55,282 bases of DNA from a virus (IMGVR_UViG_3300008120_000334:1-55282); one strand, 5' to 3'. Positions 3,724-49,785 are shown, numbered from the stretch's first letter. Notes: generated by a model not told the origin, from the letters alone. A program made the numbers and translations.

Positions 3724-3735
3724 ATCAGTACCGCA

Positions 3736-4200: not shown

Positions 4201-4206
4201 ACTAAT

Positions 4207-4416: not shown

Positions 4417-4437
4417 CCATTTAAACCACCAAAAACC

Positions 4438-5866: not shown

Positions 5867-6057
5867 TGACCCCAAAAAACACGCACGGCGGCTCCCGTGG
5901 TGGTGGCCGCCCCCCAAAACCAGAAAGCCAGAAAAAAGCCAAGATGGTACAGTTTCGCCCATCACACGAAGTCGCTCAGATATTGAGCAAGCAAAAGAAT
6001 AAGACAAAGTTTATTGAGGAGGTGGTTTTGTATTTTACCGAAAAAACCCAAAAATAA
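5866..6057 (+). CDS. Small DNA-binding protein (GGxRxGGGRP hook plus RHH-like segment)
   Basis: HGGSRGGGRPPK followed by a beta-strand and helices; last gene of a promoter-led module. Confidence 0.6.
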   Translation: MTPKNTHGGSRGGGRPPKPESQKKAKMVQFRPSHEVAQILSKQKNKTKFIEEVVLYFTEKTQK

Positions 6058-6082
6058 ATATTAAAAATCTCTTGTTTAGTAT

Positions 6083-6102
6083 TGTATGAAATCATACATT
6101 TG
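6083..6102 (+). promoter_or_regulatory. Palindromic operator overlapping a promoter
   Basis: TGTATGA-AA-TCATACA (6083-6098) overlaps TACATTTG (6095-6102); second copy at 6300-6321. Confidence 0.65.
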
Positions 6103-6118
6103 CAAAACCTAATACAAA

Positions 6119-6286
6119 ATGACGGGCGAAGAACTTAAAATATTGAGAGAAAAAGCGGGATTAACGCAAATAGAACTTGCTGAAAAGATAGGGACATTTC
6201 ACCCTGTTATTTCAGGATGGGAAAACGGTAAGCACAAAATAAGCCGTGCTTATTTGCGTATTTTGCAATCATTCTTTAAAGTTTGA
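6119..6286 (+). CDS. XRE/Cro-like HTH regulator, 55 aa (not in ORF track)
   Basis: MTGEELKILREKAGLTQIELAEKIGTFHPVISGWENGK... Confidence 0.85.
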   Translation: MTGEELKILREKAGLTQIELAEKIGTFHPVISGWENGKHKISRAYLRILQSFFKV

Positions 6287-6388
6287 TTTTTTTGCCTACT
6301 ATTGTATGAAGTTATACAATAAATTACTAACAAAAACCCCTTGTCGCCGTAGGAAGCATTAACAAGGGGTCTAAAACAAGCACGTTTT

Positions 6389-6541
6389 ATGTCACAAAGA
6401 ACACAAGTTTCGACCAAAAAAGCAAACCGTTCAGTAAACGGTAAAACTCAAACTACAAAGGTAGATGGGCTTCGAGAAAAAAGCCTCCGCGATTACGAAG
6501 AGATTTTAGGCAAATCATTGAGCACTGAAAACTTTGCTTAA
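6389..6541 (+). CDS. Hypothetical 50-aa protein (not in ORF track)
   Basis: ATG 6389 to TAA 6541, ends 2 nt before the antirepressor start. Confidence 0.45.
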   Translation: MSQRTQVSTKKANRSVNGKTQTTKVDGLREKSLRDYEEILGKSLSTENFA

Positions 6542-6543
6542 TC

Positions 6544-7245
6544 GTGCAGGAAATCATCAAGTTGATACCGAATGAGCAAGGCTCAAAAGCGGTAAGTGCA
6601 AGGGCGTTGTACGATTATTTGGGGTATGACAAAAGTCAATGGAAACGGTGGTATAAAAAGAACATTGAAGAAAATCCTTTTGCGCCACAAAATCAGGATT
6701 GGGTAGTTTTCGACATGATGTCGAGTACAGACGGAGGTAGGCCAACCAAAGATTTTGCCCTATCTCTGGAGTTTGCTAAGAAATTGGCGATGATGTCGAG
6801 AACTGAAAAAGGGGAACAAGCAAGAAACTATTTTTTGGAATGCGAAAAAGAAGCCGTTTCTGTAAAATCAAACACCACCTCTCCTGTTCAGCAAATTGAA
6901 GCCCATACCAAACGACCTGTTCAAGTAGAAAATGCCAAAGGTGCGAATAAGTATAGCTTTCAACATGGCAATAAAGAGGCGTGTATTGACTGGAATAGAA
7001 AGGTAGCTTTTCACTTTACCAAAATGACTCCTTACGAATTAAAGGAGTGGGCTAAAAAGAAAGGGCTTCCCGCTAAGGCTCGAACGTCGGGCAAAGAAGT
7101 GATTCGTCAGGTTAGGCCAGACAAAGCCGCAGGGGTATCAGTTGCGGATTTTTTTCATGCAATGGGCGAAGACGACGAAACCGCTTTAAAATTAGGAGAA
7201 ATGTCAATTCCTTTGGTAAACAAACTTTTGCAGTACAATAAGTAG
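6544..7245 (+). CDS. AntA/AntB-family antirepressor
   Basis: AVSARALYDYLG...GGRPTKDFALSLEFAKKLAMMSRTEKGEQARNYFLECEK. Confidence 0.9.
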   Translation: MQEIIKLIPNEQGSKAVSARALYDYLGYDKSQWKRWYKKNIEENPFAPQNQDWVVFDMMSSTDGGRPTKDFALSLEFAKKLAMMSRTEKGEQARNYFLECEKEAVSVKSNTTSPVQQIEAHTKRPVQVENAKGANKYSFQHGNKEACIDWNRKVAFHFTKMTPYELKEWAKKKGLPAKARTSGKEVIRQVRPDKAAGVSVADFFHAMGEDDETALKLGEMSIPLVNKLLQYNK

Positions 7246-7313: not shown

Positions 7314-7790
7314 CTACTGCCACTTCACCACCAAATCCACGCGCTCACGTTCAACCTTGGCGTAATCGCGTATATTCTTTACTTCGCAGCCCATCATTCG
7401 AGCAGTAGTTTCAAGGTCGTACTTATGAACATTTAGGCAGATATGAGCAAAAGTTTTCCGACCAATCTTGGAAGAAAGCCCAATGCTGATACCTGCCATT
7501 TGTTCGAGTACCTTTAGGCGTTCATTGAACTTTACGGGGTGCATAGCAGGAAGCCCCGAAACCTGCTTTTTATTGCGTCGTTGACCCTTAAAAGTGGCTT
7601 CAATCTGTCCTCCGTAATCTGAAATTATTTTTATCGGTATTGGGTGCATTTTTTGCTCAATGGTGGATAAGTGTTCGTCAAAAGTTTTTTTTCGGTTTTT
7701 GATAAGCCAAACGTAGCCGTCAATCACTTTAAAGTCTTCCTTGGTTAGTTCCAGATAATCCCCAATGCGCGTACCCCGTGTGATTCTTGA
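7314..7790 (-). pseudogene. 5'-truncated tyrosine recombinase (integrase catalytic domain only)
   Basis: The frame extends upstream of the GTG to GTRIGD (box I Arg) and then hits a stop with no ATG; SSKIGRKTFA...MMGC...DYAKV box II; arm- and core-binding domains are absent. Confidence 0.75.
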
Positions 7791-7877
7791 AACCGAGCAT
7801 TTCCGACACCTCCTGTTGGGTCAAATTGGCCTGTTTTCTAAGTTTTTTTAAATTTTCTCCTATTTTCATAGTAACAA

Positions 7878-14827: not shown

Positions 14828-15068
14828 ACAGCCTTGAAGTTTTAGTTTAACCTCTACCCCCTTCACTCTTGCGCAAAACAGGAGCAAAAGTATTTTGATA
14901 AAGGGTTTATTGAAAAACATCTTTCCCCCTGCGTTTGCAGGGGGCAAGGGTGAAAGGGTTTAGAAGTAGTTAAAAGAGGAACGTTGAGTATAAGTAAGTT
15001 AGTAGGGTAGGATTCACTCCCTACTACTTAAATTTTTCACCGAAAACAACTTTTAAAATCATAAAACT

Positions 15069-15290
15069 ATGTCATTTATCAAATTCACAATCGAAAACGG
15101 AAGTACATATATTGTCAATATAAATGAAATTACTGACGTAACAGTTTCTCAAGACGGAAATGCTCGCATTAGCTTTTCTGACATCGACAACTACGTTAAA
15201 ATTGACAATTTCCCATTGGGAGAATTTGAGGCCGCACTAAGAGTTTTAGGCGTACAGTGCGTAGAAATAAAGCTACAAAAAAAACAGTGA
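15069..15290 (+). CDS. Hypothetical beta-rich protein
   Basis: ORF with A-rich leader. Confidence 0.65.
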   Translation: MSFIKFTIENGSTYIVNINEITDVTVSQDGNARISFSDIDNYVKIDNFPLGEFEAALRVLGVQCVEIKLQKKQ

Positions 15291-15331
15291 TAACCTTATT
15301 TTTTCACCGAAACCTTTAAACTCAAAATATC

Positions 15332-15448
15332 ATGCAAAAACCACAAATCACCGAAGAAGACCATGAAGGTATGTTTTGGATGTTTATAGCGATTCTTGTC
15401 TGCGCTGTAAGCTTTGTAACTCTAATCATTTACCTAATATTTCAATGA
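15332..15448 (+). CDS. 38-aa single-TM micropeptide
   Basis: MQKPQITEEDHEGMFWMFIAILVCAVSFVTLIIYLIFQ; ATGA-coupled to the next ORF. Confidence 0.55.
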   Translation: MQKPQITEEDHEGMFWMFIAILVCAVSFVTLIIYLIFQ

Positions 15449-15561
15449 AAGCCCCACGCAAAGAAAATCTTCTTTTTGGCCTTGTGGGTATTCTTTCCGC
15501 AATAATCATACTGGCCGTAGTTCTTATCCAAATTCAAAGAATCTTAATCTTTTCACCATGA
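15445..15561 (+). CDS. 38-aa single-TM micropeptide
   Basis: MKAPRKENLLFGLVGILSAIIILAVVLIQIQRILIFSP; ATGA-coupled on both sides. Confidence 0.55.
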   Translation: MKAPRKENLLFGLVGILSAIIILAVVLIQIQRILIFSP

Positions 15562-15668
15562 ACGCTTCAAACAACTTTCAAAAACCACAACCAGGTGAAT
15601 CTACTTTCATGCACGTTGTGGTGATTTTATCGGCTGCCGCGCTTGCTTGGGTGGCGTTATTTCTTTAG
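15558..15668 (+). CDS. 36-aa single-TM micropeptide
   Basis: MNASNNFQKPQPGESTFMHVVVILSAAALAWVALFL. Confidence 0.5.
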   Translation: MNASNNFQKPQPGESTFMHVVVILSAAALAWVALFL

Positions 15669-15701
15669 CAAATTTTCAACTAATCATAACTACTTAGCAC
15701 A

Positions 15702-16349
15702 ATGTCACTAATTATTTCAGAATCCCAATCAACGCCAAGAACACCTATCCCCGCTGGAATGTATCTTGCTCGCTGCTATGGCCTTATCCAAGTTGGCCGT
15801 TATACAGAGTATTCAGATTTTCTTAAGAAAGACGTAATCGAAAACAAAATACGCATTACTTGGGAATTACCAGCCCTTACAAAAGAGTTCAAAGAAGGTG
15901 AAGGAGAAAGACCTTATTCAATCTCCAAGGAGTTCACTATGTCGCTCAACGAAAAAGGCAACCTACGCCCATTCCTTAACTCGTGGCGCGGCCGTTCTTT
16001 TACAGAGGACGAGCTGAAAGGCTTCGACATTCTTACAATCGTTGGTGCACCGTGTATGCTTAACATCATTCACAAAAAGTCAAAAGATGGCTCAAAGACC
16101 TACGAAGAAATCGCAACAATTACGCCTTTGATGAAAGGTACAGAAATGCCACCAGCTTTCAACGAAAAGCAAATATTGACCTACTCAGGCTGGAATCAAT
16201 CTTTGTTTGATTCACTCCCTGACTTCATCAAAGATAAAATGAAAAAGTCTGACGAGTACTTGGCAATGGTTGCACCATCTCACGTTGAGTCTGCACAGTC
16301 TCCCGTAAATGCTGAATCGTCAGACAAAGACGAAGCCTTGCCGTTTTAG
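15702..16349 (+). CDS. Phage ssDNA-binding-like protein (NGO0469-like)
   Basis: PAGMYLARCY...SLNEKGNLR.FL.SWRG...PCMLNI; acidic tail ending DEALPF. Confidence 0.7.
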   Translation: MSLIISESQSTPRTPIPAGMYLARCYGLIQVGRYTEYSDFLKKDVIENKIRITWELPALTKEFKEGEGERPYSISKEFTMSLNEKGNLRPFLNSWRGRSFTEDELKGFDILTIVGAPCMLNIIHKKSKDGSKTYEEIATITPLMKGTEMPPAFNEKQILTYSGWNQSLFDSLPDFIKDKMKKSDEYLAMVAPSHVESAQSPVNAESSDKDEALPF

Positions 16350-16396
16350 TTTACCCCATAAGGGGAGCGTCAAACCTCCCCAAAAATTCTACTACA

Positions 16397-16627
16397 ATGC
16401 AAAAATTCAAAATTAAACAGTGGGCGTATTTCATACATACCCACGGAGGCGTAAAGTTTGGCTACGAACCAATTACACAGGTGCTTGAATCCGAAAAAGA
16501 AGTAAAGTATTGGTTTGATAATGTTGTATGCCATCAATCGCAGGTTTTTGAAACCAAACAAGAGCTGAAGGCAGAACTGAACAATGCAGTTGATAAGTTG
16601 GGAAGTGTTGAACCTTTTAACCCCTAA
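16397..16627 (+). CDS. Hypothetical protein
   Basis: ORF in the operon. Confidence 0.6.
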   Translation: MQKFKIKQWAYFIHTHGGVKFGYEPITQVLESEKEVKYWFDNVVCHQSQVFETKQELKAELNNAVDKLGSVEPFNP

Positions 16628-16639
16628 CCCCTAACCATC

Positions 16640-16852
16640 ATGGCAATACAAATCAAAAACAAAGCGGCACTTGCGCATAGGCTTGACCAGCAAACCTATA
16701 AAGGCGAGATTAGGAAAGACCCAGATTATTACATTACCTGCGTGGTGATGGACGAAAGAAAACCTTTTACAATCACTTTTAACCCTGTGCTTCTTGATAA
16801 GAAGATTGAGAAGTACGGTGATAGGTTGATTTTACCGAATGTAACCAAATGA
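16640..16852 (+). CDS. Hypothetical protein
   Basis: ORF in the operon. Confidence 0.6.
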   Translation: MAIQIKNKAALAHRLDQQTYKGEIRKDPDYYITCVVMDERKPFTITFNPVLLDKKIEKYGDRLILPNVTK

Positions 16853-16887
16853 GCGCAAACCCCAAAAAACTAACCGCCACGTTCAGG

Positions 16888-16917
16888 ATAATGCCTTGAG
16901 CGGCTTTGTAAAACTCA
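16888..16917 (+). repeat. 30-bp leader element, copy 1
   Basis: ATAATGCCTTGAGCGGCTTTGTAAAACTCA, identical to 49748-49777. Confidence 0.9.
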
Positions 16918-16925
16918 TAATTAAA

Positions 16926-17117
16926 ATGCTTAAAAAATTAGAAACATTAAAAGCAGAACTTGAGAAGATGTATGCAGTTGAACTTCTTGAGTATTACGAC
17001 AAAAATCATTTGTCTGGCGATAATAAAACCAGAAGTGAAACAAGACAAGAACAACTGCAATACTCAATTCGATTAATTAACGAAATAAATGAAACAGCTC
17101 AGAAAGTTGTAAACTAA
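16926..17117 (+). CDS. Hypothetical helical protein (start ATG 16926)
   Basis: ATG lies 8 nt after the 30-bp element, the same spacing as at copy 2. Confidence 0.65.
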   Translation: MLKKLETLKAELEKMYAVELLEYYDKNHLSGDNKTRSETRQEQLQYSIRLINEINETAQKVVN

Positions 17118-17166
17118 TTTTTGTGGCTCGTAGGATGCTCGGTGTTAGGTGTAGTGGAATCGTATT

Positions 17167-17289
17167 TAATTTGCGATTGCCGATGGCGGGGACTTAGAAC
17201 CAAAAACGTTCGGCTTAACAACAAAATTTAATAAGATGTCAGAAATATTAACAACAACCGAAACCCCCGCTATTGGCAATGTGCTGTTA
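17167..17289. repeat. attC-like site 1 (degenerate left core, TAAT)
   Basis: ATTGCCGATGGCGGGG / CCCCGCTATTGGCAAT arms; GTTA at 17286. Confidence 0.7.
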
Positions 17290-17577
17290 TGCGATGTTTA
17301 TCCTAATTGGCTATACATTGAGCTGATTGGAAATAAGTTGCTAATGCACATTTTGAAAGAATACGGCACATTGAATAAAGAAGATTACGAAAGAGTATAT
17401 AAGAGTTATGTTCTTCCATACTTTACAACATGGGACAATTTCAGTTGCTGTATGAATGGAGATGTTCAATACAGCCCCGTTGTCTTGGCTTGGTATGCAG
17501 AAAAAATAGGAGTTAAGCCAACTTATCCTTTAAGAGTAATGAGGCGGGTTGCTTGGTCGCTACGAAATATCGCATAA
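17236..17577 (+). CDS. Cassette 1 hypothetical protein
   Basis: Starts inside site 1; stop is the TAA of the next TAAC. Confidence 0.7.
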   Translation: MSEILTTTETPAIGNVLLCDVYPNWLYIELIGNKLLMHILKEYGTLNKEDYERVYKSYVLPYFTTWDNFSCCMNGDVQYSPVVLAWYAEKIGVKPTYPLRVMRRVAWSLRNIA

Positions 17578-17700
17578 CGATAGGTATTTGCGATGGTTGG
17601 ATATTTGAAAATATAAAGATGAATAACTTGATACAGACTGATTTATTTACTACTGCTGATGTGCCAACGTCAAGCCCAACTATTGCAAATACCCATGTTA
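17575..17700. repeat. attC-like site 2
   Basis: TAAC..GGTATTTGCGATGGTTGG / CCAACTATTGCAAATACC..GTTA. Confidence 0.85.
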
Positions 17701-18296
17701 GCTGTAGTTGTGGGCAATCGGGGAAATATAAAACAATAGTAATAGACCCACCGTGGAAGTATGGCGTTTGGGGTAAAAGAAATGAAATAACATCTTCCTA
17801 TAAAAAGTTTAAAGTAAATATCGAAACCCCATTGCCATACCCTTATATGACGCTGGATGAAATAAAAGCATTGCCTATAAAGGATTTGGCTGATGAAAAT
17901 TGCGAATTATATGTATGGACTACGCAAAAATATTTGCCTGTAACTTTTGAACTTATAGACCATTGGGGGTTTAAATATTGTACAACGTTAAGCTGGTGTA
18001 AAAAGCCAAGAGGTACGGGTCAAGGTGGTGTTTATTGCCCGACTACTGAATTTATTGTACATGGAAGAATAGGTAATATGCCAAAAGTTAAAAGGATTGA
18101 TAGTACATGGTTTGAGGTAAAAAGACCGCATAATAGCCACAGTACAAAACCTGAATTTTTCCAAGATATGATTGAGACAGTTTCAGATGCTCCACGACTT
18201 GAAATGTTTGCAAGGCGTGAACGTGAAGGGTGGGACGTTTTCGGTAACGAGGTGTCAAACTCTATAAAATTAAACGCTGGTAACAATTACAGCTAA
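17619..18296 (+). CDS. Cassette 2: MT-A70-family adenine methyltransferase (likely start ATG 17619)
   Basis: YKTIVIDPPW, LYVWTT, WGFKY, HSTKP, RLEMFAR, GWDVFGNE. Confidence 0.92.
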   Translation: MNNLIQTDLFTTADVPTSSPTIANTHVSCSCGQSGKYKTIVIDPPWKYGVWGKRNEITSSYKKFKVNIETPLPYPYMTLDEIKALPIKDLADENCELYVWTTQKYLPVTFELIDHWGFKYCTTLSWCKKPRGTGQGGVYCPTTEFIVHGRIGNMPKVKRIDSTWFEVKRPHNSHSTKPEFFQDMIETVSDAPRLEMFARREREGWDVFGNEVSNSIKLNAGNNYS

Positions 18297-18417
18297 CGGT
18301 TTGCAGGTATATTTAGTGCCGAATTTGAAAAACAAAATTATATGACAACACAAAACTTGATTGAAAAACTAAACTCCGATTATACACGATGCTCGGCATT
18401 GAATATACCTGCTGTTA
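18294..18417. repeat. attC-like site 3
   Basis: TAAC..GCAGGTATATTTAGTGCCGA / TCGGCATTGAATATACCTGC..GTTA. Confidence 0.85.
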
Positions 18418-18584
18418 GCAGCCGTTTATTCTATCCGATTTATGAAAGTGTAATTGGAGATGAACCGCACCTTAAAGAAGGTGAATTTATTGAAGCCATA
18501 GGTGATGACTTTATGGCGAGGATATTTGGAGTTGGCAAGTTTAGGGATAAAGCCGAAAAGTTCTTTGTTTTAAATGGCTGCTAA
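18342..18584 (+). CDS. Cassette 3 hypothetical protein
   Basis: Starts inside site 3; stop in the next TAAC. Confidence 0.65.
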   Translation: MTTQNLIEKLNSDYTRCSALNIPAVSSRLFYPIYESVIGDEPHLKEGEFIEAIGDDFMARIFGVGKFRDKAEKFFVLNGC

Positions 18585-18706
18585 CGTTAAAACGCTTGGC
18601 GAAGAAGCGGACTTTGAAGCACAAACTTTCAGTTTAGCACAAATGCCAATAGAAAGCACGAATGTTGAATTTAGCACTAAACCCGCTTTTTGCCAAGCGT
18701 GTGTTA
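18582..18706. repeat. attC-like site 4
   Basis: TAAC..ACGCTTGGCGAAGAAGCGG / CCGCTTTTTGCCAAGCGT..GTTA. Confidence 0.85.
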
Positions 18707-18751
18707 GCACCAGTACTTTTTTAATTAGTAACAATTTAAAACAATAATAAA

Positions 18752-19000
18752 ATGCAAGAATTTAATTTAGAACATCAGTATCAACTTTATCTACAAAGAA
18801 TGGCTTTGTCAGAAAGCACAATGCACCCACAACAAAAAATCCAACTACGCCAAACTTTTTTTGGTGCAAGTGGTCAAATGCTAATTCTTTTAAGAGACGA
18901 ATTATCAAAACTTGAAGAAGAAAAAGCAATGGAAACTTTACAAGATTTAATTAACCAAGTAGGCAATTTCTTTTTAGCCGAAACAAACAAAATGAATTAA
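18752..19000 (+). CDS. Cassette 4 hypothetical protein A
   Basis: ORF with A-rich leader. Confidence 0.7.
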   Translation: MQEFNLEHQYQLYLQRMALSESTMHPQQKIQLRQTFFGASGQMLILLRDELSKLEEEKAMETLQDLINQVGNFFLAETNKMN

Positions 19001-19001
19001 T

Positions 19002-19259
19002 ATGACACCAAAGCAATTTAAAGAAGCAAATGTAACTTTTGCAAAAGACCAACCCGAATATCAGCCATTACCTGCTTTTAGAAGTGATAGCCCACAAGGT
19101 GAAGTAATTACTTGCTGGAACTTATCATTCAAAGAACGATTAAGGATTTTGTTTAAAGGCGAAATTTGGCTTTGTCTCTTAACATTCAATAAACCATTAA
19201 CACCTACTTTTATAACCACTCAAAAATCAGAGGTATTGTCTGACGGTAGCGGTTCGTAG
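19002..19259 (+). CDS. Cassette 4 hypothetical protein B
   Basis: DQPEYQPLPA...ITCW.LSFKERL.IL..G.IWL phage-type small protein; stop overlaps the cassette end. Confidence 0.75.
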   Translation: MTPKQFKEANVTFAKDQPEYQPLPAFRSDSPQGEVITCWNLSFKERLRILFKGEIWLCLLTFNKPLTPTFITTQKSEVLSDGSGS

Positions 19260-19268
19260 TATTGGTGC

Positions 19269-19393
19269 TAACGTTCGAGTATTGGCGAAGAAGCGGACTT
19301 ATACCATTAAAGTTGATACGAAGCACCAATGTTGATGCTACTACAAATGTTCATACGAAGCACTAAAACCGCTTTTTTGTCAATACTTTGTTA
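19269..19393. repeat. attC-like site 5
   Basis: TAAC..AGTATTGGCGAAGAAGCGG / CCGCTTTTTTGTCAATACT..GTTA. Confidence 0.85.
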
Positions 19394-19472
19394 TGCGTTC
19401 GCCTTTTTTTCTGTTGATTTTCAGTTAGTTAGAAACTAATTTAAAAATAAATGAAAAATACTTTGAAAAAAG

Positions 19473-19503
19473 TTTGCAGTTATCAAAATAGAACCTATAT
19501 TTG
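19473..19503 (+). promoter_or_regulatory. Cassette-internal promoter (cassette 5)
   Basis: TTTG 19473-19476 and TATATTTG 19496-19503. Confidence 0.65.
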
Positions 19504-19533
19504 TACTCAGATAACAAATAAAAAATAAACAAA

Positions 19534-19710
19534 ATGACAACGATAATTTTTAAAAACGAAAAGAAAGCAAAAGTTTACGAAGTTAGAGCAGCAAAACCAT
19601 TTCATATTTATTCTGCTGGCGAGTTAATCAAAAGAGTAAAAACTGACAAAATTGAAAACCTAAACGAAAACTACGCAACTGATGAAATCACAGTTACAGA
19701 AATTAAATAA
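19534..19710 (+). CDS. Cassette 5 hypothetical 58-aa protein (not in ORF track)
   Basis: ATG 19534 after the promoter, TAA 19708-19710. Confidence 0.6.
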   Translation: MTTIIFKNEKKAKVYEVRAAKPFHIYSAGELIKRVKTDKIENLNENYATDEITVTEIK

Positions 19711-19894
19711 TCAACTCCAAAAAATCGAAACAGAGCTTTCTAAATGTAGAGGCTCTGTTTTAGAGGATGGATGGCAAACACAGCGTTATGCTAAAAAGAT
19801 GCGTAAATGGGATTATTACGCAATAGAAAAAATGAAAATTTTACAACAAATAGAAGATTATGAAAATAAAATTTGTATCAATGAGGAAGTATAA
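19682..19894 (+). CDS. Cassette 5 coiled-coil hypothetical protein
   Basis: ORF overlapping its neighbours in the operon. Confidence 0.6.
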   Translation: MKSQLQKLNNQLQKIETELSKCRGSVLEDGWQTQRYAKKMRKWDYYAIEKMKILQQIEDYENKICINEEV

Positions 19895-20102
19895 AATGTG
19901 TATAGGTTGGAAATATCGCCTAAAAAACTTTTTTACTATTGAGAAATATTGGTCTGGCAAAATAATTCAATTCAGAATTTTATGTGAATATGGTTTTGAT
20001 ATTGATTTGCGGGATGGTGGTTTTAAATTAACCGATTTACTTAATGAGAAAGAAAAAAAGCGTTTTTATTTAGGTATGTGGTTAAGGAAAAATCGGAACT
20101 AA
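19860..20102 (+). CDS. Cassette 5 hypothetical protein (start uncertain)
   Basis: TAATG-coupled to the next gene. Confidence 0.55.
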   Translation: MKIKFVSMRKYKMCIGWKYRLKNFFTIEKYWSGKIIQFRILCEYGFDIDLRDGGFKLTDLLNEKEKKRFYLGMWLRKNRN

Positions 20103-20269
20103 TGAAAAAGAAAAAAGAAAATAGAGGAGGCAAACGCCCTCTCTCTGGTCGTAAAAAAGCGGACCACGAAACTAAAACTATTGCATTTCGTGTTCGTGTC
20201 GAATTTGTCGAACCGATTAAAAAGATGGTAAAAGATTATGTTTCTGAGCGTCTGCAAGGTGACGCATAA
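20102..20269 (+). CDS. Cassette 5 small DNA-binding protein (RGGKRxxSGRK hook plus RHH-like segment)
   Basis: RGGKRPLSGRKK...TKTIAFRV; stop in TAAC. Confidence 0.7.
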   Translation: MKKKKENRGGKRPLSGRKKADHETKTIAFRVRVEFVEPIKKMVKDYVSERLQGDA

Positions 20270-20392
20270 CGGTTTGCAGCTATATTTAGTTGCGGACTTA
20301 GAAGCACAAAACTTGAATTATTCACAAAATTAAATTAGAAAATATGAACTTGAATGAACCACAAAAACCGCAATTGAATATAGGTGCTGTTA
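20267..20392. repeat. attC-like site 6
   Basis: TAAC..GCAGCTATATTTAGTTGCGG / CCGCAATTGAATATAGGTGC..GTTA. Confidence 0.85.
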
Positions 20393-20544
20393 GCGGTAGT
20401 GCCACTCCGAACTTTTTAAAGGTTGCCGTTGATGAACTGCTAACCTACAGAACACCGAAAAAGATAATTGATTACATAGAAGCTGAAAAGATGAAATCAA
20501 TAATAGGGAACCCACCGTTTGATGTTTTTGGGCATTACCGCTAA
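20344..20544 (+). CDS. Cassette 6 hypothetical protein
   Basis: Starts inside site 6; stop in the next TAAC. Confidence 0.6.
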   Translation: MNLNEPQKPQLNIGAVSGSATPNFLKVAVDELLTYRTPKKIIDYIEAEKMKSIIGNPPFDVFGHYR

Positions 20545-20668
20545 CGGTTCAGGGCTTTGCGAAGGCAGGGCTAAATAGCACAAAAGTTTAAATTAATTAC
20601 AAATGTCAAATAGAAATACAAAAGTTCAAAATCAGCACCAAAGCCCTGCTTTTGCAAAGCCCTTGTTA
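20542..20668. repeat. attC-like site 7
   Basis: TAAC..AGGGCTTTGCGAAGGCAGGGCT / AGCCCTGCTTTTGCAAAGCCCT..GTTA. Confidence 0.88.
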
Positions 20669-21100
20669 CCTGCCGTTTTTTCTATTAGCAGTAAGGTTTG
20701 TCCAATATGTAAAACAGAAAAAGACTTGTCAAATTTTGGTAAATACTTTTCTAAAGAACGCCAAAAATACAGAGTTCAAAACTATTGCAAAAGTTGTGAA
20801 AAATCAGAAAAGAAAAGGCGTTCAGCAGAATATTACGAAGCTAATAAAGAAGCAAGAAAACAATATCAAAAAGAACACAGGGCAAACCCAAACAACAAAG
20901 AAAAGTTAAAAGCAGTATCGCAAAAATTCAAAATAAAATATCGTGAGGAATTGCAAGACTGCTATGTTAGAGATAGGCTGACACAAGATAATAAAATACC
21001 AAATTATGTTTCAAGGGAATTGCCTGAAATAGTAGAAGCGAAAAGATTACAAATAAAAATTAAACGTAAAATAAAATCATTAAACAATGGCAAAAAATAA
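20603..21100 (+). CDS. Cassette 7 basic Zn-ribbon protein
   Basis: CPICKTEK..F...YCKSC; starts inside site 7. Confidence 0.7.
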   Translation: MSNRNTKVQNQHQSPAFAKPLLPAVFSISSKVCPICKTEKDLSNFGKYFSKERQKYRVQNYCKSCEKSEKKRRSAEYYEANKEARKQYQKEHRANPNNKEKLKAVSQKFKIKYREELQDCYVRDRLTQDNKIPNYVSRELPEIVEAKRLQIKIKRKIKSLNNGKK

Positions 21101-21356
21101 ATTATCAGACTTAAACGACCATCTTTTTATGGCATTAGAAAGATTAAATGACGAGGAATTGACAACCGAACAAATTGAATCTGAAAGTAAAAGAGCAGAA
21201 GCAATTATAGGTGTTGCAAATCAAATTATAGGAACTGCTAAAATTACACTTGACGCTATGAAATTAGTTTCAAATGGAAATTTAGACACAACTGAATTAC
21301 CTGAAAATTTTGGATTTAAACGACTGGTTTCGGATTCTACGCAAAATGGCAGGTAA
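21087..21356 (+). CDS. Cassette 7 helical phage protein
   Basis: KNKLSDLNDHLFMALERLNDE...RAEAI; stop in TAAC. Confidence 0.75.
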   Translation: MAKNKLSDLNDHLFMALERLNDEELTTEQIESESKRAEAIIGVANQIIGTAKITLDAMKLVSNGNLDTTELPENFGFKRLVSDSTQNGR

Positions 21357-21477
21357 CGTTGAAGCATTGGCGAAGGCAGGGAATAGTAGCACAACTGCCG
21401 AACCAAGTACAAAAGTTAAATAGTGCTACCATTGTTGAAAGTAGAACGTCTGCCCTGCTTTTGCCAATGCAATGTTA
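21354..21477. repeat. attC-like site 8
   Basis: TAAC..GCATTGGCGAAGGCAGGG / CCCTGCTTTTGCCAATGC..GTTA. Confidence 0.88.
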
Positions 21478-21498
21478 TAGGCAGCCTAATTTTAGGAT

Positions 21499-21903
21499 AT
21501 GGAATTTCAAATTATAATGGCTCACGGTGCTATGGGTGCTGATGCAAGCGACACAATGTTAGACACTTTTCTTCGTCAGTTTTCCCAAAAGCACCAAGAA
21601 GAAGGCGAATGGGCTGAAAAATATGGAACTGATTTAGAAACTGAAAAAGTAATGATGAAACGTTATTGCTGGTGCGAAAAAGAAGTTTGTCCATACTGCT
21701 TTGATTTAGAAGAAGAAAAGGTAACACAAGAATTGAAAGAAAAGTATGGAATGGAAGATGATAGAACAGCACCGAACTTTTGGTATAAGCCATTAGATTT
21801 TAAAGTGTGGTGGTATAAATACATTGGTCGTTCTGTCGAGGTTAATAAGCAATTGTCTGATGATGATTTTAAAAAGATGGTTGATGATTGTATGTCGTCA
21901 TAG
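21499..21903 (+). CDS. Cassette 8 Cys-containing hypothetical protein
   Basis: YCWCEKEVCPYC...PNFWYKP...WYKYIGRS; stop overlaps the cassette end. Confidence 0.75.
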   Translation: MEFQIIMAHGAMGADASDTMLDTFLRQFSQKHQEEGEWAEKYGTDLETEKVMMKRYCWCEKEVCPYCFDLEEEKVTQELKEKYGMEDDRTAPNFWYKPLDFKVWWYKYIGRSVEVNKQLSDDDFKKMVDDCMSS

Positions 21904-21911
21904 GTTGCCTA

Positions 21912-22036
21912 TAACGTACAGGTGTTTAAGATGAAGTGGACTTTGAAAAACGTCAGCTCGTTTACTTACTGATGTTAAATAGGATTCTAAAGGTGCAATT
22001 AATTCCGCCCACCACTTTATATTAAACACCATGTTG
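21912..22036. repeat. attC-like site 9
   Basis: TAAC..GGTGTTTAAGATGAAGTGG / CCACTTTATATTAAACACC..GTTG. Confidence 0.8.
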
Positions 22037-22136
22037 TGTGCTGCTGTTTTTATGTCTGTCAAAACCTATATATTGCCAATTTTTAGTTATACTTGTTATC
22101 AAATCAATAAAGTCTTAAACTTAAAACAAAAGAAAC

Positions 22137-22688
22137 ATGAAGGCATTAGACGAGAAGTTATTATATCTCGCATCTGAAAATACGTTGGTCAATTTAAAAG
22201 CCGATGCTACGGAGTTGTTAAAAAGTTATCACGAAACAGAAACAATAATTACAAACAAATCAACGTCTTTGTTGCAGTTTTTATTCCCTGTCTTTGTTGG
22301 TATTTTTGGCTATATTTTAGTTGAAATACAAACTAAAAGCAACCCGAAACTATTTTGGTTTGCTTGTATTGAAGAAATTGTGATTTTCTTGTCATGTTAT
22401 TATTTGTTTGAGTTACTTTATTTAAAGAAAGTCGCTCTAAGCGGGGTGAAACCTTCAAATATGTTACATGATGATATTGTCAAAAACGACGAAAATGGAA
22501 ATACTTTGCAGTATTTAAGATTACGTGTTTTTGGGTTACAAAATGCAATAACCGCTTGTGAAGCAAGTCACGATAAAAGAAAAACAAACTTCAAAAATGC
22601 TTTAAACATTTTAATGATAGGCACTTCTGTTGTTGTCCTTATTTTTTCGTTAGTCCTGATTGGTCAAGGCCTCTTTCTTCATAAGTAG
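22137..22688 (+). CDS. Cassette 9 three-TM membrane protein
   Basis: Two N-half hydrophobic helices and one C-terminal TM. Confidence 0.75.
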   Translation: MKALDEKLLYLASENTLVNLKADATELLKSYHETETIITNKSTSLLQFLFPVFVGIFGYILVEIQTKSNPKLFWFACIEEIVIFLSCYYLFELLYLKKVALSGVKPSNMLHDDIVKNDENGNTLQYLRLRVFGLQNAITACEASHDKRKTNFKNALNILMIGTSVVVLIFSLVLIGQGLFLHK

Positions 22689-22800
22689 TCGTCTCTCTCA
22701 TGGGTTGTCTAACAGGTTGTTGAGCGGGAGTAACAGTTTGTTGTTGTTGGCTTTGTTGTCCTTGCTCTTGGCTGTTATTGTTGTCGTTATTGTTGGTCAT
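22639..22800 (-). CDS. Cassette 9 convergent 53-aa N/Q-rich peptide (not in ORF track)
   Basis: MTNNNDNNNSQEQGQQSQQQQTVTPAQQPVRQPMRETTTYEERGLDQSGLTKK*. Confidence 0.55.
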   Translation of the reverse strand: MTNNNDNNNSQEQGQQSQQQQTVTPAQQPVRQPMRETTTYEERGLDQSGLTKK

Positions 22801-22857
22801 ATTTTTCTATTATTTAAATATCTAAATCTTACGGATGTGTTTTTTTACAGTTGCACA

Positions 22858-22982
22858 CAACGTTTTGCATATTGGAGCAGTAGGGGATTTGGAACACGAA
22901 AGTTTCTATACCCACTACACTTCATTAGATGCAATACCGTTCAATTTACCACTTAAACCCCTATTGCTCTAATATGCTGTTA
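22858..22982. repeat. attC-like site 10
   Basis: CAAC..GCATATTGGAGCAGTAGGGG / CCCCTATTGCTCTAATATGC..GTTA. Confidence 0.85.
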
Positions 22983-23075
22983 TGCTCTCGTTGCGGATTT
23001 TTAGCAGTAAACTTCAATCGGAGCAATGTTTTTTGTTCTTTTTTGTAGGTGGTAAAAAATATTTTTGATAAATAG

Positions 23076-23106
23076 TTTGTAAATACAAAATAAATACTTA
23101 CCTTTG
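23076..23106 (+). promoter_or_regulatory. Cassette-internal promoter (cassette 10)
   Basis: TTTG 23076-23079 and TACCTTTG 23099-23106. Confidence 0.65.
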
Positions 23107-23148
23107 AAGTGTTGTTAGCAATGAAGCTACAATCTAAAATTAAAAACA

Positions 23149-23346
23149 ATGGAAAAGTTAATCACAAATGCAAAAAGTCAATTTGAGAAATTCGGTCAAG
23201 TTAGAATCACTATTTATCCTAATCGTAGTGTAAATGATAGCTACGATATAGTTGAGAAGACAATGGATTCAGCTATTGAATCAATATCACATTTATACCA
23301 ATCGGTAACAGACGACCTTAGTGTTTCACACGCAAATGCAATGTAA
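23149..23346 (+). CDS. Cassette 10 hypothetical protein
   Basis: First ORF after the promoter. Confidence 0.65.
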   Translation: MEKLITNAKSQFEKFGQVRITIYPNRSVNDSYDIVEKTMDSAIESISHLYQSVTDDLSVSHANAM

Positions 23347-23510
23347 TGAGCAACACGAAAAAAGTAACGATAAGCCTTACTCCTGAACAACAGGATAAGG
23401 CTCGTTCTTTATCAAAAGATTTATTTGGTAAAGAAAATATATCTGGACTAATCGGATTTTTGATTGAGCGTTGGGAAAAAGAACAAAAAACTTCCACAAA
23501 TGTCAAATAG
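23346..23510 (+). CDS. Cassette 10 ribbon-helix-helix-like 54-aa protein (not in ORF track)
   Basis: MSNTKKVTISLTPEQQDKARSLSKDLFGKENISGLIGFLIE; TAATG coupling. Confidence 0.65.
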   Translation: MSNTKKVTISLTPEQQDKARSLSKDLFGKENISGLIGFLIERWEKEQKTSTNVK

Positions 23511-23534
23511 AAGCGGTCACGTAGCAATGGAGCA

Positions 23535-23557
23535 TAACGAGTTTATTTGCGAAACTC
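23535..23557. repeat. Terminal half-site of the array (attI-like candidate)
   Basis: TAAC followed only by GAGTTT-N7-AAACTC; no long hairpin and no GTT partner. Confidence 0.5.
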
Positions 23558-23583
23558 TACCCCCGTCAACTACTTAATAATCA

Positions 23584-23808
23584 ATGAAAATACAGGTTAC
23601 ATACTACGCAAAATGGCAGATAAAAGATGCTACTTGGTATAAGTGGACTACCTGTAAAAAGTTGATAAATTGCAAAACAGGGCGTGAGATTAAAAAGACC
23701 ACAAAGGGCGCACAGGCGGGGTATTATATTGAAGGAGAGTTTGTAAAAATTTCCGACCTCAAAAATAGAGTAGAACTAATACCTTTTAAGGAGAAATTGC
23801 CATTTTAA
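23584..23808 (+). CDS. Hypothetical protein
   Basis: ORF following the array. Confidence 0.65.
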   Translation: MKIQVTYYAKWQIKDATWYKWTTCKKLINCKTGREIKKTTKGAQAGYYIEGEFVKISDLKNRVELIPFKEKLPF

Positions 23809-23819
23809 AATCAACCCCT

Positions 23820-24164
23820 ATGAACTGGAAAGAAATAAACGAGAAGTACCCGAAAGCGTTTTTGGAGTGGGTGAAGAATCAGAACGAGTCGGAGATAAGC
23901 AACATCCATTACTTTCTCGCTGATAACGCCTGCTTAGTCAATAATGGCCGTATTACTTTTGATAGTAGCGACCTTATTCACTTGCCTTACTACTTTGATA
24001 CGTTGGGGATTGAAATAGAATCGTCAAAGTACAGTTGTCGGGTAACTGACAGAACATTACAAAATAAGTATTTTCTTGGCTATAAAGATGGCCGCCTCTC
24101 CGCCACAATAGCAGGGGCTGAGAAAGCATTTGAGATTCGGGATGCGCAATTAAATAACAACTAA
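23820..24164 (+). CDS. Hypothetical protein
   Basis: ORF in the operon. Confidence 0.65.
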   Translation: MNWKEINEKYPKAFLEWVKNQNESEISNIHYFLADNACLVNNGRITFDSSDLIHLPYYFDTLGIEIESSKYSCRVTDRTLQNKYFLGYKDGRLSATIAGAEKAFEIRDAQLNNN

Positions 24165-24284
24165 TCATACCCACCCCCTCCCTCATCCACCGAAAGGGCG
24201 TTAGATTTAAAGGGGTTTTTGTCAGACGTGCGGCTGTGTTGGCTGCTGGATGATGGAGGGGTCAAATACTAAAACACTAAAAAT

Positions 24285-24578
24285 ATGTTTTACCGTGTAA
24301 GTGACAGGGAATACCCAAGTATTATATTTGGAGAGGGTAAAATTGTGCTTTATGGAAGAATAAGCACAGATAAACAGGCTACTGAACTGGTCTTTCACAA
24401 TTCGGAAGAGCCAAGAGAAGTAGGGTCTGTTTTTGATAAAGAACTTTGTGACCCCAAGTTTAGCCTTTTCTTCAAAAACAAAAAAGGACTTCAAGTACTT
24501 ATTAAAAACCTTCAAGACCTTGAGCGAAAAATGGAAGGAGAAGATGCAAGATTAAGCGATTTAGGAGAGGGGAACTAA
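24285..24578 (+). CDS. Hypothetical protein
   Basis: Last plus-strand ORF before the terminator. Confidence 0.65.
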   Translation: MFYRVSDREYPSIIFGEGKIVLYGRISTDKQATELVFHNSEEPREVGSVFDKELCDPKFSLFFKNKKGLQVLIKNLQDLERKMEGEDARLSDLGEGN

Positions 24579-24579
24579 C

Positions 24580-24609
24580 AAAAAAGCCGCGTCAAACGAT
24601 GCGGCTTTT
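24580..24609. terminator. Bidirectional terminator between the early and late arms
   Basis: AAAAAAGCCGCGTC-AAAC-GATGCGGCTTTT. Confidence 0.8.
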
Positions 24610-24634
24610 AACATTACCTAACCTATCTCTACTA

Positions 24635-25117
24635 CTAAATCTCTTTTAACTGAAAGTGCATCCCGTCTTTTTTAGCCCAATAGCCGCCCCAATCAAACCC
24701 CGCGTCCTCAAAGCACTTTACAAATCCTGCTGAAAGCGTAGGTTCTGCACCAAATTGATTCCACGCTGCGTTTAGGTCAATAGCCACCGCCCAACAATGA
24801 AGGCTTAACGTTTTCTGTTCCCGCTTTAGTCGAATATTGTACGAACCATCCCACGTTTTCAACTCACCCGAAAAGCCACGTTGAATAAGGTCTCGAAATG
24901 CAGCTTCCAGAGGCTTTACCATGAGCTTGTTAGTATAAATTCGATTGGGCAAAGCGAGTATTGCATCGTTAATACTTTGCGGCACATCCCAACTTACCAA
25001 AAGTCGAGACTCCCAGGCGGCGATTGGCTGTGGCCTCCCCCATCTTTTTTGGCAGTCGTTACTTGTTAGCATTTTGCGACAATTTAAAAAACGGCTTCCA
25101 ATCACTTGCCCATTCAT
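24635..25117 (-). CDS. Endolysin, M15-family peptidase (true start probably MLTSND at 25072)
   Basis: R...SLHCWAVAIDLN...WGGYW..KDGMHFQL. Confidence 0.9.
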   Translation of the reverse strand: MNGQVIGSRFLNCRKMLTSNDCQKRWGRPQPIAAWESRLLVSWDVPQSINDAILALPNRIYTNKLMVKPLEAAFRDLIQRGFSGELKTWDGSYNIRLKREQKTLSLHCWAVAIDLNAAWNQFGAEPTLSAGFVKCFEDAGFDWGGYWAKKDGMHFQLKEI

Positions 25118-49747: not shown

Positions 49748-49777
49748 ATAATGCCTTGAGCGGCTTTGTAAAACTCA
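49748..49777 (+). repeat. 30-bp leader element, copy 2
   Basis: Identical to 16888-16917. Confidence 0.9.
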
Positions 49778-49785
49778 ATTTGATT

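Follow-up and report, generated by a model that had tools for sequence, protein, structure and literature searches.

Ten hairpin-bounded gene cassettes in a siphovirus genome point to an integron-like system shared with Bacteroidota

Ten hairpins alternate with small genes

The window, that is, the whole stretch of DNA that was analysed, is a complete 55-kb siphovirus record of 55,282 bases. It contains ten hairpins between positions 17167 and 22982, all on the + strand and all at the places that a sequence-only reading of this DNA had reported. They span 123-127 nt from TAAC to GTTA (n = 10), with exceptions at the 5′ ends of h1 (TAAT) and h10 (CAAC) and at the 3′ end of h9 (GTTG). In each, an asymmetric internal loop separates the outer 4-bp TAAC/GTTA helix from a stem of about 19-20 bp, which is closed by a loop of roughly 70 nt.

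Every hairpin is followed by one or more genes on the + strand, and we refer to these units as cassettes. Cassette 1 (17167..17574) consists of h1 (17167-17289), with its degenerate start, and an ORF of 113 aa (17236-17577). Cassette 2 (17575..18293) carries, after h2 (17575-17700), an MT-A70 DNA methyltransferase gene (17619-18296), whose product matches Pfam MT-A70 (6.6e-21) and a PHROG DNA methyltransferase (3.9e-44). Cassette 3 (18294..18581) has h3 (18294-18417) and an ORF of 80 aa (18342-18584). In cassette 4 (18582..19268), h4 (18582-18706) has four AGCAC motifs spaced 18 nt in its loop and a loop ORF of 34 aa (18643-18747), followed by ORFs 18752-19000 and 19002-19259. Cassette 5 (19269..20266) includes h5 (19269-19393), a promoter-like TTTG..TAnnTTTG (19473-19503) and ORFs 19534-19710, 19682-19894, 19860-20102 and 20078-20269. 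Cassette 6 (20267..20541) comprises h6 (20267-20392) and an ORF of 66 aa (20344-20544), and cassette 7 (20542..21353) comprises h7 (20542-20668) and ORFs of 165 aa (20603-21100; weak endonuclease-like PHROG matches) and 89 aa (21087-21356; phrog_2044). Single ORFs follow h8 (21354-21477) in cassette 8 (21354..21911; ORF 21499-21903, 134 aa) and h9 (21912-22036) in cassette 9 (21912..22857; ORF 22137-22688, 183 aa). Cassette 10 (22858..23532) carries h10 (22858-22982), a promoter-like motif (23076-23106) and ORFs 23149-23346 and 23346-23510. The loops of h1, h2, h3, h6 and h7 contain the start codons of their downstream genes, and the TAA of TAAC is the stop codon of six ORFs (17577, 18296, 18584, 20269, 20544 and 21356), as had been read from the sequence. 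No immunity family was found among the window genes using Pfam and PHROG.

The array is followed by a terminal half-site on the + strand (23521..23560), with a left flank, TAAC at 23533-23536 and a hairpin-like 5′ arm that has no 3′ arm. If one base is skipped, the left flank is complementary to the sequence that follows h10, a pairing that an ungapped scan misses, and the whole-window covariance model scan described below gave no match there.

The hairpins are conserved in structure and covary

The hairpin family is conserved in structure rather than in sequence, and its stems covary. Across the ten copies standard pairs occupied 93.5% of the pair cells versus 67.7% in shuffled copies, and the covariation score was 0.70 versus 0.20, neither value being reached in 500 shuffles; slid controls for hairpin pairing gave 38-47%. 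Compensatory changes were found at 16 of the 19 inner stem pairs, and conserved G.T and A.C positions both occur on the same strand. By folding energy alone, eight hairpins were outdone by just 0-2 of 200 shuffles, while h1 and h5 were no better than shuffled sequence (32 and 25 of 200 shuffles, respectively, fold as well). A covariance model made from the ten hairpins and run over all 55,282 bases with filters off matched these ten alone, on the + strand, at 93-138 bits; the next-best matches were their own reverse strands (24 bits at most). A search of the hairpins against Rfam gave no match.

The sequence-only reading had further claimed that the bases after each GTT are complementary to those before the next AAC and not to the hairpin's own flank, which is the signature of integron cassettes. 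This was borne out at all nine junctions of the window: 10, 11, 11, 11, 8, 11, 11, 11 and 10 of 12 bases pair, while the remaining 91 cells of the 10 × 10 flank matrix reach at most 8 of 12 and the hairpins' own flanks 3-6. Where a mismatch recurs, it is a T.G pair in a constant position (AAT-N7-AAC versus GTT-N7-GTT). At seven loci of related phages 17 of 34 consecutive flank pairs reach at least 10 of 12, and in a large bacterial array (G003, below) 151 of 305 consecutive pairs reach 10-11 of 12, versus 12 of 2,994 random pairs. Outside the window the match is thus absent from half of the neighbouring pairs (17/34 and 154/305), probably because some sites were missed and others are offset by one base.

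Cassettes are lost and reordered precisely at TAACG

We looked for natural variants of the array among contigs from other public runs (X3-X6); these are short-read contigs, not raw reads, and X3-X5 possibly come from one sampling campaign. The same phage was found in other runs without cassette 2, cassettes 6 and 7, cassette 9 or cassette 10, and every joint lies within TAACG. Contigs of X4 and X5 join 17574 to 18294, where exactly 17575-18293 (cassette 2) is gone, and 20266 to 21354, where 20267-21353 (cassettes 6 and 7) is gone, in both cases with no other letters. An X5 contig of 1258 nt joins 21912 to 22859 and skips 21913-22858 (cassette 9), again with no other letters, and X6 contigs join 22858 to 23536, skipping 22859-23535 (cassette 10), and 20271 to 23535. 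The joints from h6, h9 and h10 arrive at the terminal half-site (23534-23536). The two partners of a joint have only 4-5 letters in common. Loose ends begin at hairpin starts (18582, 19267, 20540, 21354 and 22859); for example, the match begins at 18582 (cassette 4) in an X3 contig and at 21354 (cassette 8) in X6 contigs, with unlike sequence before it, and in an X6 relative (loose end at 17157) the same left flank leads into a canonical TAACG with another hairpin in the place of cassette 1. Among the contig joints no circle junction was found, all of them being deletions, replacements or changed neighbours. Joints internal to cassette 5 are present in X3 and X5, and the head and tail of this cassette are 87-89% identical to the related phage L003, with an unlike middle.

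A comparison of related phages, which had been suggested along with the claim that the cassettes are bounded at the conserved core, placed the breaks at AACG. The backbones of L003 and L005 are 97.6% identical over 2,591 nt, and they share a 341-nt cassette (100% identical), third in one phage and first in the other, and a 325-nt cassette (99.4%), first in one and fourth in the other. Identity turns on and off exactly at AACG, and gain, loss and reordering thus respect the core both here and in the contigs of other runs. The mobile unit is the hairpin with its downstream gene, and the crossover is at the AAC side; the phage hairpin therefore lies 5′ of its gene and holds the start codon, unlike attC.

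A Xer-like recombinase accompanies the hairpin family in bacterial and some phage arrays

When the custom model, another suggestion of the sequence-only reading, was run on Bacteroidota, the family was found in 79 of 151 sampled genomes, in two length classes of about 123 and 86 nt. One array, on the chromosome of G003, has at least 335 sites on one strand across about 500 kb. In G001 and G002 a Xer-like tyrosine recombinase abuts the AAC end of the array, in G003 it lies about 3 kb past the last hairpin, and in G004 and G005 a homologue is at or near the contig end; across the five proteins, identity to the first is 37-43%. L/AAC half-sites adjoin the recombinase in G001 and G002 and are 2.6 kb from it in G003. 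The half-site at 23533 of the window sits where these recombinase-proximal half-sites stand in the bacterial arrays. Four viral contigs (L443, L444, L445 and L449) likewise show an array followed by a relative of the array recombinase, read as ORFs of 266-289 aa in three of them. Adjacency is thus what suggests that recombinase and hairpins work together.

In the window itself, a Pfam scan of 82 ORFs detected no recombinase of the array type, and a six-frame PF00589 scan gave just a remnant of 13.8 bits (7383-7778). Nor was an array recombinase found in five related phage records, three of them only 30-62% complete. The suggestion that the phage carries a capture and shuffling platform therefore stands for the shuffled cassettes and falls for a complete platform, as the array is present and the recombinase is absent.

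Phage genes run opposite to the genes of the chromosomal cassettes. In G003 the longest ORF is antisense to the hairpin model and ends beside the hairpin in 139 of 151 cassettes. Among 130 classifiable hairpins of viral contigs, 55 are associated with just a sense ORF that begins in the loop and 8 with just an antisense ORF, versus 3 and 40, respectively, of 61 hairpins in the bacterial scan. A site 3′ of a co-oriented, usually promoterless ORF, as integrons have it, is thus seen in the bacterial arrays and not in the window or the other viral contigs.

Phage cassettes are enriched in methyltransferases: 31 of 81 loop-start ORFs encode DNA methyltransferases, and 41 of 81 have any Pfam match. 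The bacterial cassettes carry, among others, genes for toxin-antitoxin systems, immunity, acetyltransferases and restriction, with one Imm42 match among 36 array ORFs scanned in G003. The proposal of a store of counter-defence genes agrees with this methyltransferase-dominated phage cargo, and the unannotated genes may have such a role as well.

Alternative explanations

We considered whether these could be ordinary attC sites recombined by IntI, the array being the remnant of a canonical integron (a CALIN) callable by IntegronFinder. The AAC/GTT cores, the imperfect palindromes, the flank signature and the ORF-then-site order of the bacterial cassettes all fit, and the lengths of the hairpins fall within the range of attC sites. 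Moreover, attC clusters have been described on phages, including a Polaribacter phage and MW202573 (PMC9892861, in the text available), the latter a distant relative of the window phage via one protein. However, our hairpin model gives one weak match in the Polaribacter phage P12002L and none in MW202573, and Rfam has no match for the hairpins. The recombinase of the bacterial arrays aligns to the integron-integrase model TIGR02249 in two stretches that skip positions 178-240, at 178 bits against a cut-off of 265, and its top-scoring model is XerA-type; the IntI4 structure likewise aligns to it in two stretches. An integrase with the IntI-specific additional domain is absent both from the window and from beside the bacterial arrays. 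Furthermore, the accessible parts of surveys report almost no integrons in Bacteroidetes (PMC9024848, 10.1101/2024.07.02.601686), and yet 79 of 151 genomes carry this family. We therefore regard a canonical remnant as unlikely; of the proposed integron identity, the flank signature and core breakpoints hold, while canonical attC and IntI are not supported, the recombinase being Xer-like and without the IntI insertion. We judge the system to be an integron analogue, present in the window phage as an array without a recombinase.

It is still less likely that homologous or illegitimate recombination between repeated stem-loops shuffles the modules without a dedicated site-specific recombinase, as has reportedly been proposed for the stem-loops of T4-type phages. 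The repeats do lie on either side of small accessory genes in an early region that varies, and the phage, which has no recombinase of its own, has genes for a RuvC-like resolvase and a NinB/Orf-like mediator. But the crossover point never varies, hairpin interiors differ and the shared 4-5 letters are all that joint partners have in common; the swapped flanks require exchange at a fixed point in a palindromic site, and the arrays of bacteria and of the four viral contigs have a tyrosine recombinase at their end.

The hairpins might instead act purely at the RNA level, as stem-loops between cistrons of the early transcript that govern its processing, stability or translation, for which the RNase III sites of T7 are a model, with the flank pairing kept by selection on RNA and no DNA mobility. 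The uniform sense orientation of the phage copies, the start codons in loops, the stems of about 20 bp and the G.U pairs at fixed places favour this. We nevertheless consider it very unlikely, as the same elements are antisense to genes in the bacterial array (139/151), near-identical genomes lose and reorder cassettes exactly at TAACG, and the flank pairing would need to bridge whole translated ORFs; the hairpins may have an RNA role alongside recombination. That they are MITE-like small mobile elements inserted between genes that are not cargo, as many copies in many genomes and two length classes might suggest, is hardly credible, since hairpin and adjacent gene always move as one 99-100% identical block, deletions take both jointly and all copies of an array have a single orientation.

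Proposed mechanism

We thus favour, with a probability of roughly three in four, the reading of the region as an array of ten mobile gene cassettes belonging to an integron-like system that is widespread in Bacteroidota. Each cassette would run from AAC through a 124-nt hairpin and GTT to the gene or genes and a short flank. This flank is complementary to the bases that follow the GTT of the same cassette, and in an excised circle the hairpin would therefore gain about 13 bp and become a single long folded site. A Xer-like tyrosine recombinase, the probable catalyst, would break and reseal the DNA at the conserved (T)AAC(G) that precedes the hairpin when read along the phage + strand, presumably in folded single-stranded DNA, and would excise, insert and reorder whole cassettes, probably by way of cassette circles. 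The hairpin-less TAAC half-site at 23533 may be the end of the array or a recipient site. Since the phage does not encode the recombinase, this would be supplied in trans from a chromosomal array of the host or a co-infecting phage, or else the array may be passive for now. The cassettes would be transcribed with the early operon and from promoters carried by cassettes 5 and 10. As phage genes start in the hairpin loop, the site would double as a translation start and N-terminal leader. The cargo is predicted to be accessory and largely anti-restriction.

Comparison with known systems

The PeSL (promoter-early stem-loop) cassettes of T4-type phages reportedly have stem-loops flanking small accessory genes in a hyperplastic region, where modular shuffling is said to be proposed, and are said to act via homology of near-identical repeats and to carry a promoter. 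The sites of the window, in contrast, differ in sequence and have only the TAACG core in common at joints, and they bear the swapped-flank signature and, in relatives, come with a recombinase dedicated to them.

Residence on a phage, which the sequence-only reading considered unusual, is not new as such, given that Qi et al. 2023 (PMC9892861) describe integrase-less attC clusters in virulent and temperate phages, P12002L among them as a Bacteroidota phage, and mention methyltransferase cargo. As far as that account goes, these clusters were identified using canonical attC models and in most cases comprise 2-3 sites, and our hairpin model is weak or silent in the two phages compared above; a ten-cassette array, population-level turnover, reversed polarity and starts within the site do not appear in it. 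If accepted as attC analogues, the ten sites and the half-site make up a site cluster with no integrase, i.e. a phage CALIN.

rAID-1 of Bacteroidales (recombinase-associated acquired interbacterial defence clusters), as outlined in the available descriptions (10.1101/471110, PMC12247911), is headed by an XerD-like tyrosine recombinase (defined by >44% identity to a B. fragilis reference), followed by co-oriented short low-GC genes with intergenic repeats "reminiscent of integrons", and occurs in more than half of Bacteroidales genomes. The bacterial hairpin arrays resemble this description in their layout and in the Xer-like recombinase at their head. Unlike our arrays, rAID-1 is presented in these descriptions without a recombination site, a mechanism or a phage form, and with orphan immunity genes as cargo, while the phage cassettes here are rich in methyltransferases (31/81).

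The closest parallels are with integrons. In contrast to these, the recombinase here has no IntI-specific insertion and reads in the same direction as the cassettes, the paired flank is about 13 bp and not 7, the family belongs to a phylum that surveys found nearly integron-free, the phage ORF is reversed and starts inside the site, and the window has no integrase. As in integrons, a conserved AAC/GTT core bounds the cassettes, the sites are imperfect palindromes kept in structure rather than sequence, what remains of the core behind one site is complementary to the beginning of the following one, and cassettes are gained, lost and reordered precisely, with breakpoints at the core; the bacterial arrays are also very large, lie on one strand next to a tyrosine recombinase and have comparable cargo. 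As these are swappable cassettes with recombination-site hairpins of the kind that also builds the big arrays of Bacteroidota, such viruses appear to exchange accessory genes in much the way that integrons exchange resistance genes.

Hairpin sites with swapped flank pairing

Ten hairpins (h1 to h10, window 17167-22982, plus strand) had been described in the sequence-only reading as sites whose flanks pair with those of their neighbours, and both the sites and the swapped pairing were borne out by our analysis. Each hairpin runs from TAAC to GTTA over 123-127 nt, with end variants in h1 (TAAT), h10 (CAAC) and h9 (GTTG). Its fold comprises an outer helix of 4 bp, an internal loop that is asymmetric, with 4-5 nt on its 5′ side and 1 nt on its 3′ side, and a stem of approximately 19-20 bp closed by a loop of approximately 70 nt. 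The stem sequences vary among the ten copies while pairing is kept: 93.5% of the cells are paired versus 67.7% in shuffles (0/500), and the covariation score is 0.70 versus 0.20 (0/500), with 38-47% pairing in slid controls and compensatory changes at 16 of the 19 inner stem pairs. By folding energy alone, h1 and h5 were no better than shuffles. A covariance model built from the ten hairpins and run with filters off found no further site anywhere in the window genome, no Rfam family was matched at gathering thresholds, and a tRNA scan found no tRNA.

The 12 nt that follow the GTT of one hairpin pair with the 12 nt that precede the AAC of the next, scoring 10, 11, 11, 11, 8, 11, 11, 11 and 10 of 12 along the nine junctions, while all non-junction cells of the flank matrix reach at most 8 of 12. 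The constant mismatch is a T.G pair, and therefore the flanks read AAT-N7-AAC and GTT-N7-GTT. The array closes with a half-site, in which the partner flank of h10 (23521-23532, one base skipped) is followed by TAAC (23533-23536) with no hairpin behind it. Six ORFs terminate on the TAA of TAAC, as had also been noted.

One G.T is present in 150/150 aligned bacterial copies and in 48 of the 51 that were aligned from the window together with related phages; a second position is frequently A.C. These fixed non-Watson-Crick positions suggest recognition features. We rejected the fixed G.T as a mark of the folding strand, as it lies on the same strand as the frequent A.C. Motifs of the AGCAC type are present in the hairpin loops, and the h4 loop (18619-18680) holds four copies exactly 18 nt apart.

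Cassette boundary and turnover

The boundary of the mobile unit was read from two related phage loci, L003 and L005, whose backbones are 97.6% identical across 2,591 nt. Two blocks are shared at different positions: one of 341 nt (100% identical) occupies cassette position 3 in L003 and position 1 in L005, and one of 325 nt (99.4% identical) occupies position 1 in L003 and position 4 in L005. The identity begins or ends exactly at AACG at each of the four junctions, and the hairpin travels with the gene downstream of it. In this comparison, of a kind that the sequence-only reading had proposed, the related phages differ in cassette order, with breaks at AACG.

The same boundary was found in contigs of the window's phage from other public sequencing runs (X3 to X6). 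Contigs from X4 and X5 with zero mismatches join 17574 to 18294, where the MT-A70 cassette (cassette 2, 17575-18293) is missing, and 20266 to 21354, where cassettes 6 and 7 (20267-21353) are missing; a mismatch-free contig from X5 joins 21912 to 22859, where cassette 9 (21912-22857) is missing. Two joints in X6, from 22858 to 23536 and from 20271 to 23535, both end at the terminal half-site. No more than 4-5 letters are compatible with both sides of each joint. In contigs that carry unlike sequence before the match, the match begins at 18582, 19267, 20540, 21354 and 22859, and in X6 the flank preceding h1 leads into a canonical TAACG with a hairpin other than h1. The evidence for cassette-precise turnover in the window's phage is strong but not final, as the joints were seen in contigs rather than reads and X3 to X5 possibly belong to one campaign. 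Together with L003 and L005, these joints refute the earlier placement of the crossover at GTT, with each hairpin owned by the gene upstream.

In X3-X5 a contig departs from the window order at 21477, where h8 ends, and after 11 letters of other sequence resumes at 16882, upstream of the array; window 16870-16883 has TAAC-6 nt-GTT and no hairpin. In other variants the array may reach further to the left.

Start codons inside the loops and cassette cargo

In five hairpins (h1, h2, h3, h6 and h7) the loop contains the ATG of an ORF of 66-225 codons, which crosses the 3′ arm of the hairpin and reaches the next TAAC or its vicinity. For the MT-A70 methyltransferase the loop ATG is the sole in-frame ATG ahead of the catalytic motif, and therefore the 3′ arm of the hairpin is probably translated. 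Since the site lies in the mRNA and carries a start codon, an additional RNA role in phages is possible.

Methyltransferases dominate the annotated cargo. Viral loci gave 81 non-identical loop-start ORFs with a length of 60 codons or more; 41 of them had a Pfam match, and 31 of these were DNA methyltransferases (25 N6_N4_Mtase, 4 C5, 1 D12 and 1 MT-A70). This sample is biased, since the pattern that located its loci was made for a single hairpin subtype. The other matches were to DUF4326 (3), PAPS_reduct (2), cREC_REC (2), TRM, YopX and a ProQ-like domain. The window itself has one annotated methyltransferase cassette, cassette 2, and its other cassette genes have no annotation or weak PHROG matches.

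Setting of the array in the phage genome

The window record is rated in IMG/VR as 100% complete and linear, with 55,282 bases, and is a tailed phage, since it encodes a portal, an HK97-type capsid, a prohead protease, a tape measure and a terminase. The array sits within a plus-strand block of small genes, downstream of genes for replication and recombination (primase-helicase, HU, RuvC-like resolvase and NinB/Orf) and upstream of minus-strand lysis and structural genes.

Several other features of this genome were recorded. The motif TTTG-N17-23-TAnnTTTG is the Bacteroidota promoter consensus; the window has 11 copies versus 4.7 expected, a count reached by 1 of 100 shuffles. Plus-strand copies include those at 1022, 7878, 14218, 19473 and 23076; several precede plus-strand gene blocks, and copies also lie within cassettes 5 and 10. 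The large terminase (52174-54927, minus strand, 917 aa) has LAGLIDADG/Hom_end homing-endonuclease domains between its N-terminus and its ATPase domain, which suggests an intein. A protein with a Tad2-like (anti-Thoeris) domain is encoded at 49756-50124 on the plus strand (Pfam 2.9e-23), outside the cassette array, and the left arm carries a Zeta_toxin/AAA_33-like kinase ORF (3736-4200, plus strand) and an HNH endonuclease ORF (554-904, minus strand).

Related sites in phages and bacteria

Megablast of window 15000-25000 against 50,697 phage records gave zero matches. A custom model of the ten sites, a check proposed together with the original claim, found further members in both Bacteroidota phages and hosts. 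Related uncultivated phages carry 11 (L009), 10 (L010) and 7 (L024) copies, with more in L002-L005; their hairpins fall into two length classes of approximately 123 and 86 nt, and 17 of 34 consecutive pairs show flank pairing of at least 10/12. The isolate Flavobacterium phage 6H has five copies, in the same orientation as its genes. Clusters of attC sites have been reported in phages (PMC9892861); against the phages with such clusters, our model gave one weak match in P12002L and none in MW202573.

In species-representative genomes, scanned by pattern and then by model, the family was found mainly in Bacteroidota, where 79 of 151 sampled genomes had a match at E ≤1e-6 under stricter filters and with 20 candidates scored per genome. 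One bacterial chromosome (G003) gave 335 matches at this threshold within the 560 kb examined, and among the matches listed its sites lie on a single strand, from approximately 3.476 to 3.982 Mb. In this record, which has scattered N, the region C1:3475743-3982494 (loci L396-L422) reads as one array of at least 335 sites over approximately 500 kb, about 12% of the 4.27-Mb chromosome. Flank pairing was found for 151/305 consecutive pairs versus 12/2,994 random pairs. In 139 of the 151 confirmed cassettes the longest ORF is antisense to the model and ends 8-40 nt from the hairpin, so that, like in integrons, the ORF comes first and then the site. Sampled ORFs of this array matched HepT, ParE, Imm42, Mrr_cat, GNAT and MerC, among others.

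Phage and host cassettes are mirror images in polarity. Leaving out hairpins at locus edges or with no clear core (56 viral, 45 in the bacterial scan, 32 in G003), and counting as antisense an ORF that ends at the site, the 130 classifiable hairpins of viral contigs comprised 55 with only a sense loop-start ORF, 8 antisense-only, 17 with both and 50 with neither. The corresponding numbers were 3, 40, 7 and 11 for the 61 hairpins of the bacterial scan, and 13, 159, 25 and 109 for the 306 of the G003 array. Since the break is on the AAC side, a phage cassette is topologically normal (body plus site), with its gene on the other strand and beginning in the site.

Recombinases of the arrays

In the bacterial genomes G001 and G002 a tyrosine recombinase is encoded at the AAC end of the array, co-directional with the cassette genes, and beside it lies the partner flank of the last cassette, followed by AAC with no hairpin. 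In G003 the recombinase is approximately 3 kb past the last hairpin and the equivalent half-site is 2.6 kb from it, and in G004 and G005 a homologue is found at or near the contig end. The five bacterial recombinases have catalytic motifs in common, with 37-43% identity to the first. The best profile score of the array recombinases was to a XerA-type model (210.8 bits, cut-off 220). The integron-integrase model aligned in two stretches only, skipping positions 178-240, the place of the IntI insertion; the nearest solved structures were those of archaeal XerA-type proteins and of IntI4, and the IntI4 alignment was likewise split in two stretches.

The window half-site at 23533 has a position equal to that of the recombinase-proximal half-sites of bacterial arrays. 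Neither the window nor any of five related phage records, of which three are just 30-62% complete, yielded an array recombinase, and the window is a recombinase-less form of the array. On the minus strand at 7314-7869, a stretch of approximately 140 aa comes after a short HTH ORF, in a different frame from it; its similarity is confined to the catalytic half of tyrosine recombinases (PF00589, 13.8 bits, below cut-off), and the locus may hold a decayed or frameshifted integrase in the regulatory module.

Of 80 viral loci with a gene for a relative of the recombinase, 6 had hairpins nearby, and in four of the six (L443, L444, L445 and L449) a recombinase gene follows the array in the same direction. 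It is therefore probable that some phages carry complete systems, and the candidates by gene arrangement are L444, L445 and L449, with Xer-like ORFs of 266-289 aa directly downstream of the arrays (5983-6852, 3631-4440 and 5992-6792, respectively).

Mechanism and comparison with known systems

The simplest account is integron-like: a tyrosine recombinase would recognise the shape of a folded site and act on it at a fixed AAC, and this reaction would automatically leave swapped flanks. We infer that the adjacent recombinase catalyses the reaction, that the site folds in single-stranded DNA, that circles are formed and that the enzyme can be supplied in trans. To the following reading, taken as a whole, we give a probability of about one half. 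[quoted passage not shown] Phages would hold a separate cassette pool of mirror polarity, in which the site serves as translation start and N-terminal leader, and their populations would draw on it to exchange counter-defence genes, anti-restriction methyltransferases among them, within otherwise one strain. With mirror polarity and the site as translation start, cassettes on the phage would be expressed, and any that a host array captured would be silent.

The finding on the phage array is real and important. A phage population appears to trade whole accessory genes with single-site precision, and cassette exchange would offer a mechanism for fast counter-defence turnover that is directly testable here. 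The mirror polarity of phage and host, with sites doubling as translation starts, is a new design feature, and the sites and small recombinases could be developed for the modular insertion of genes into Bacteroidota and their phages.

In the literature searched, which covered few subscription journals, we found no description of the hairpin family, the cassette boundary, the phage form or the mirror polarity. The rAID-1 clusters have been described as arrays with a XerD-like recombinase and repetitive intergenic sequences, with no site defined in the available parts of these accounts (10.1101/471110, PMC12247911). Our analysis provides a concrete site, a cassette boundary and a crossover point for recombinase-associated arrays that were so far only "reminiscent of integrons". 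Integron surveys, as far as their text was available, score Bacteroidetes as nearly devoid of integrons (PMC9024848, 10.1101/2024.07.02.601686), and the arrays reported here are a class frequent throughout that phylum. They are best classed as an integron-type system outside the IntI/attC family.
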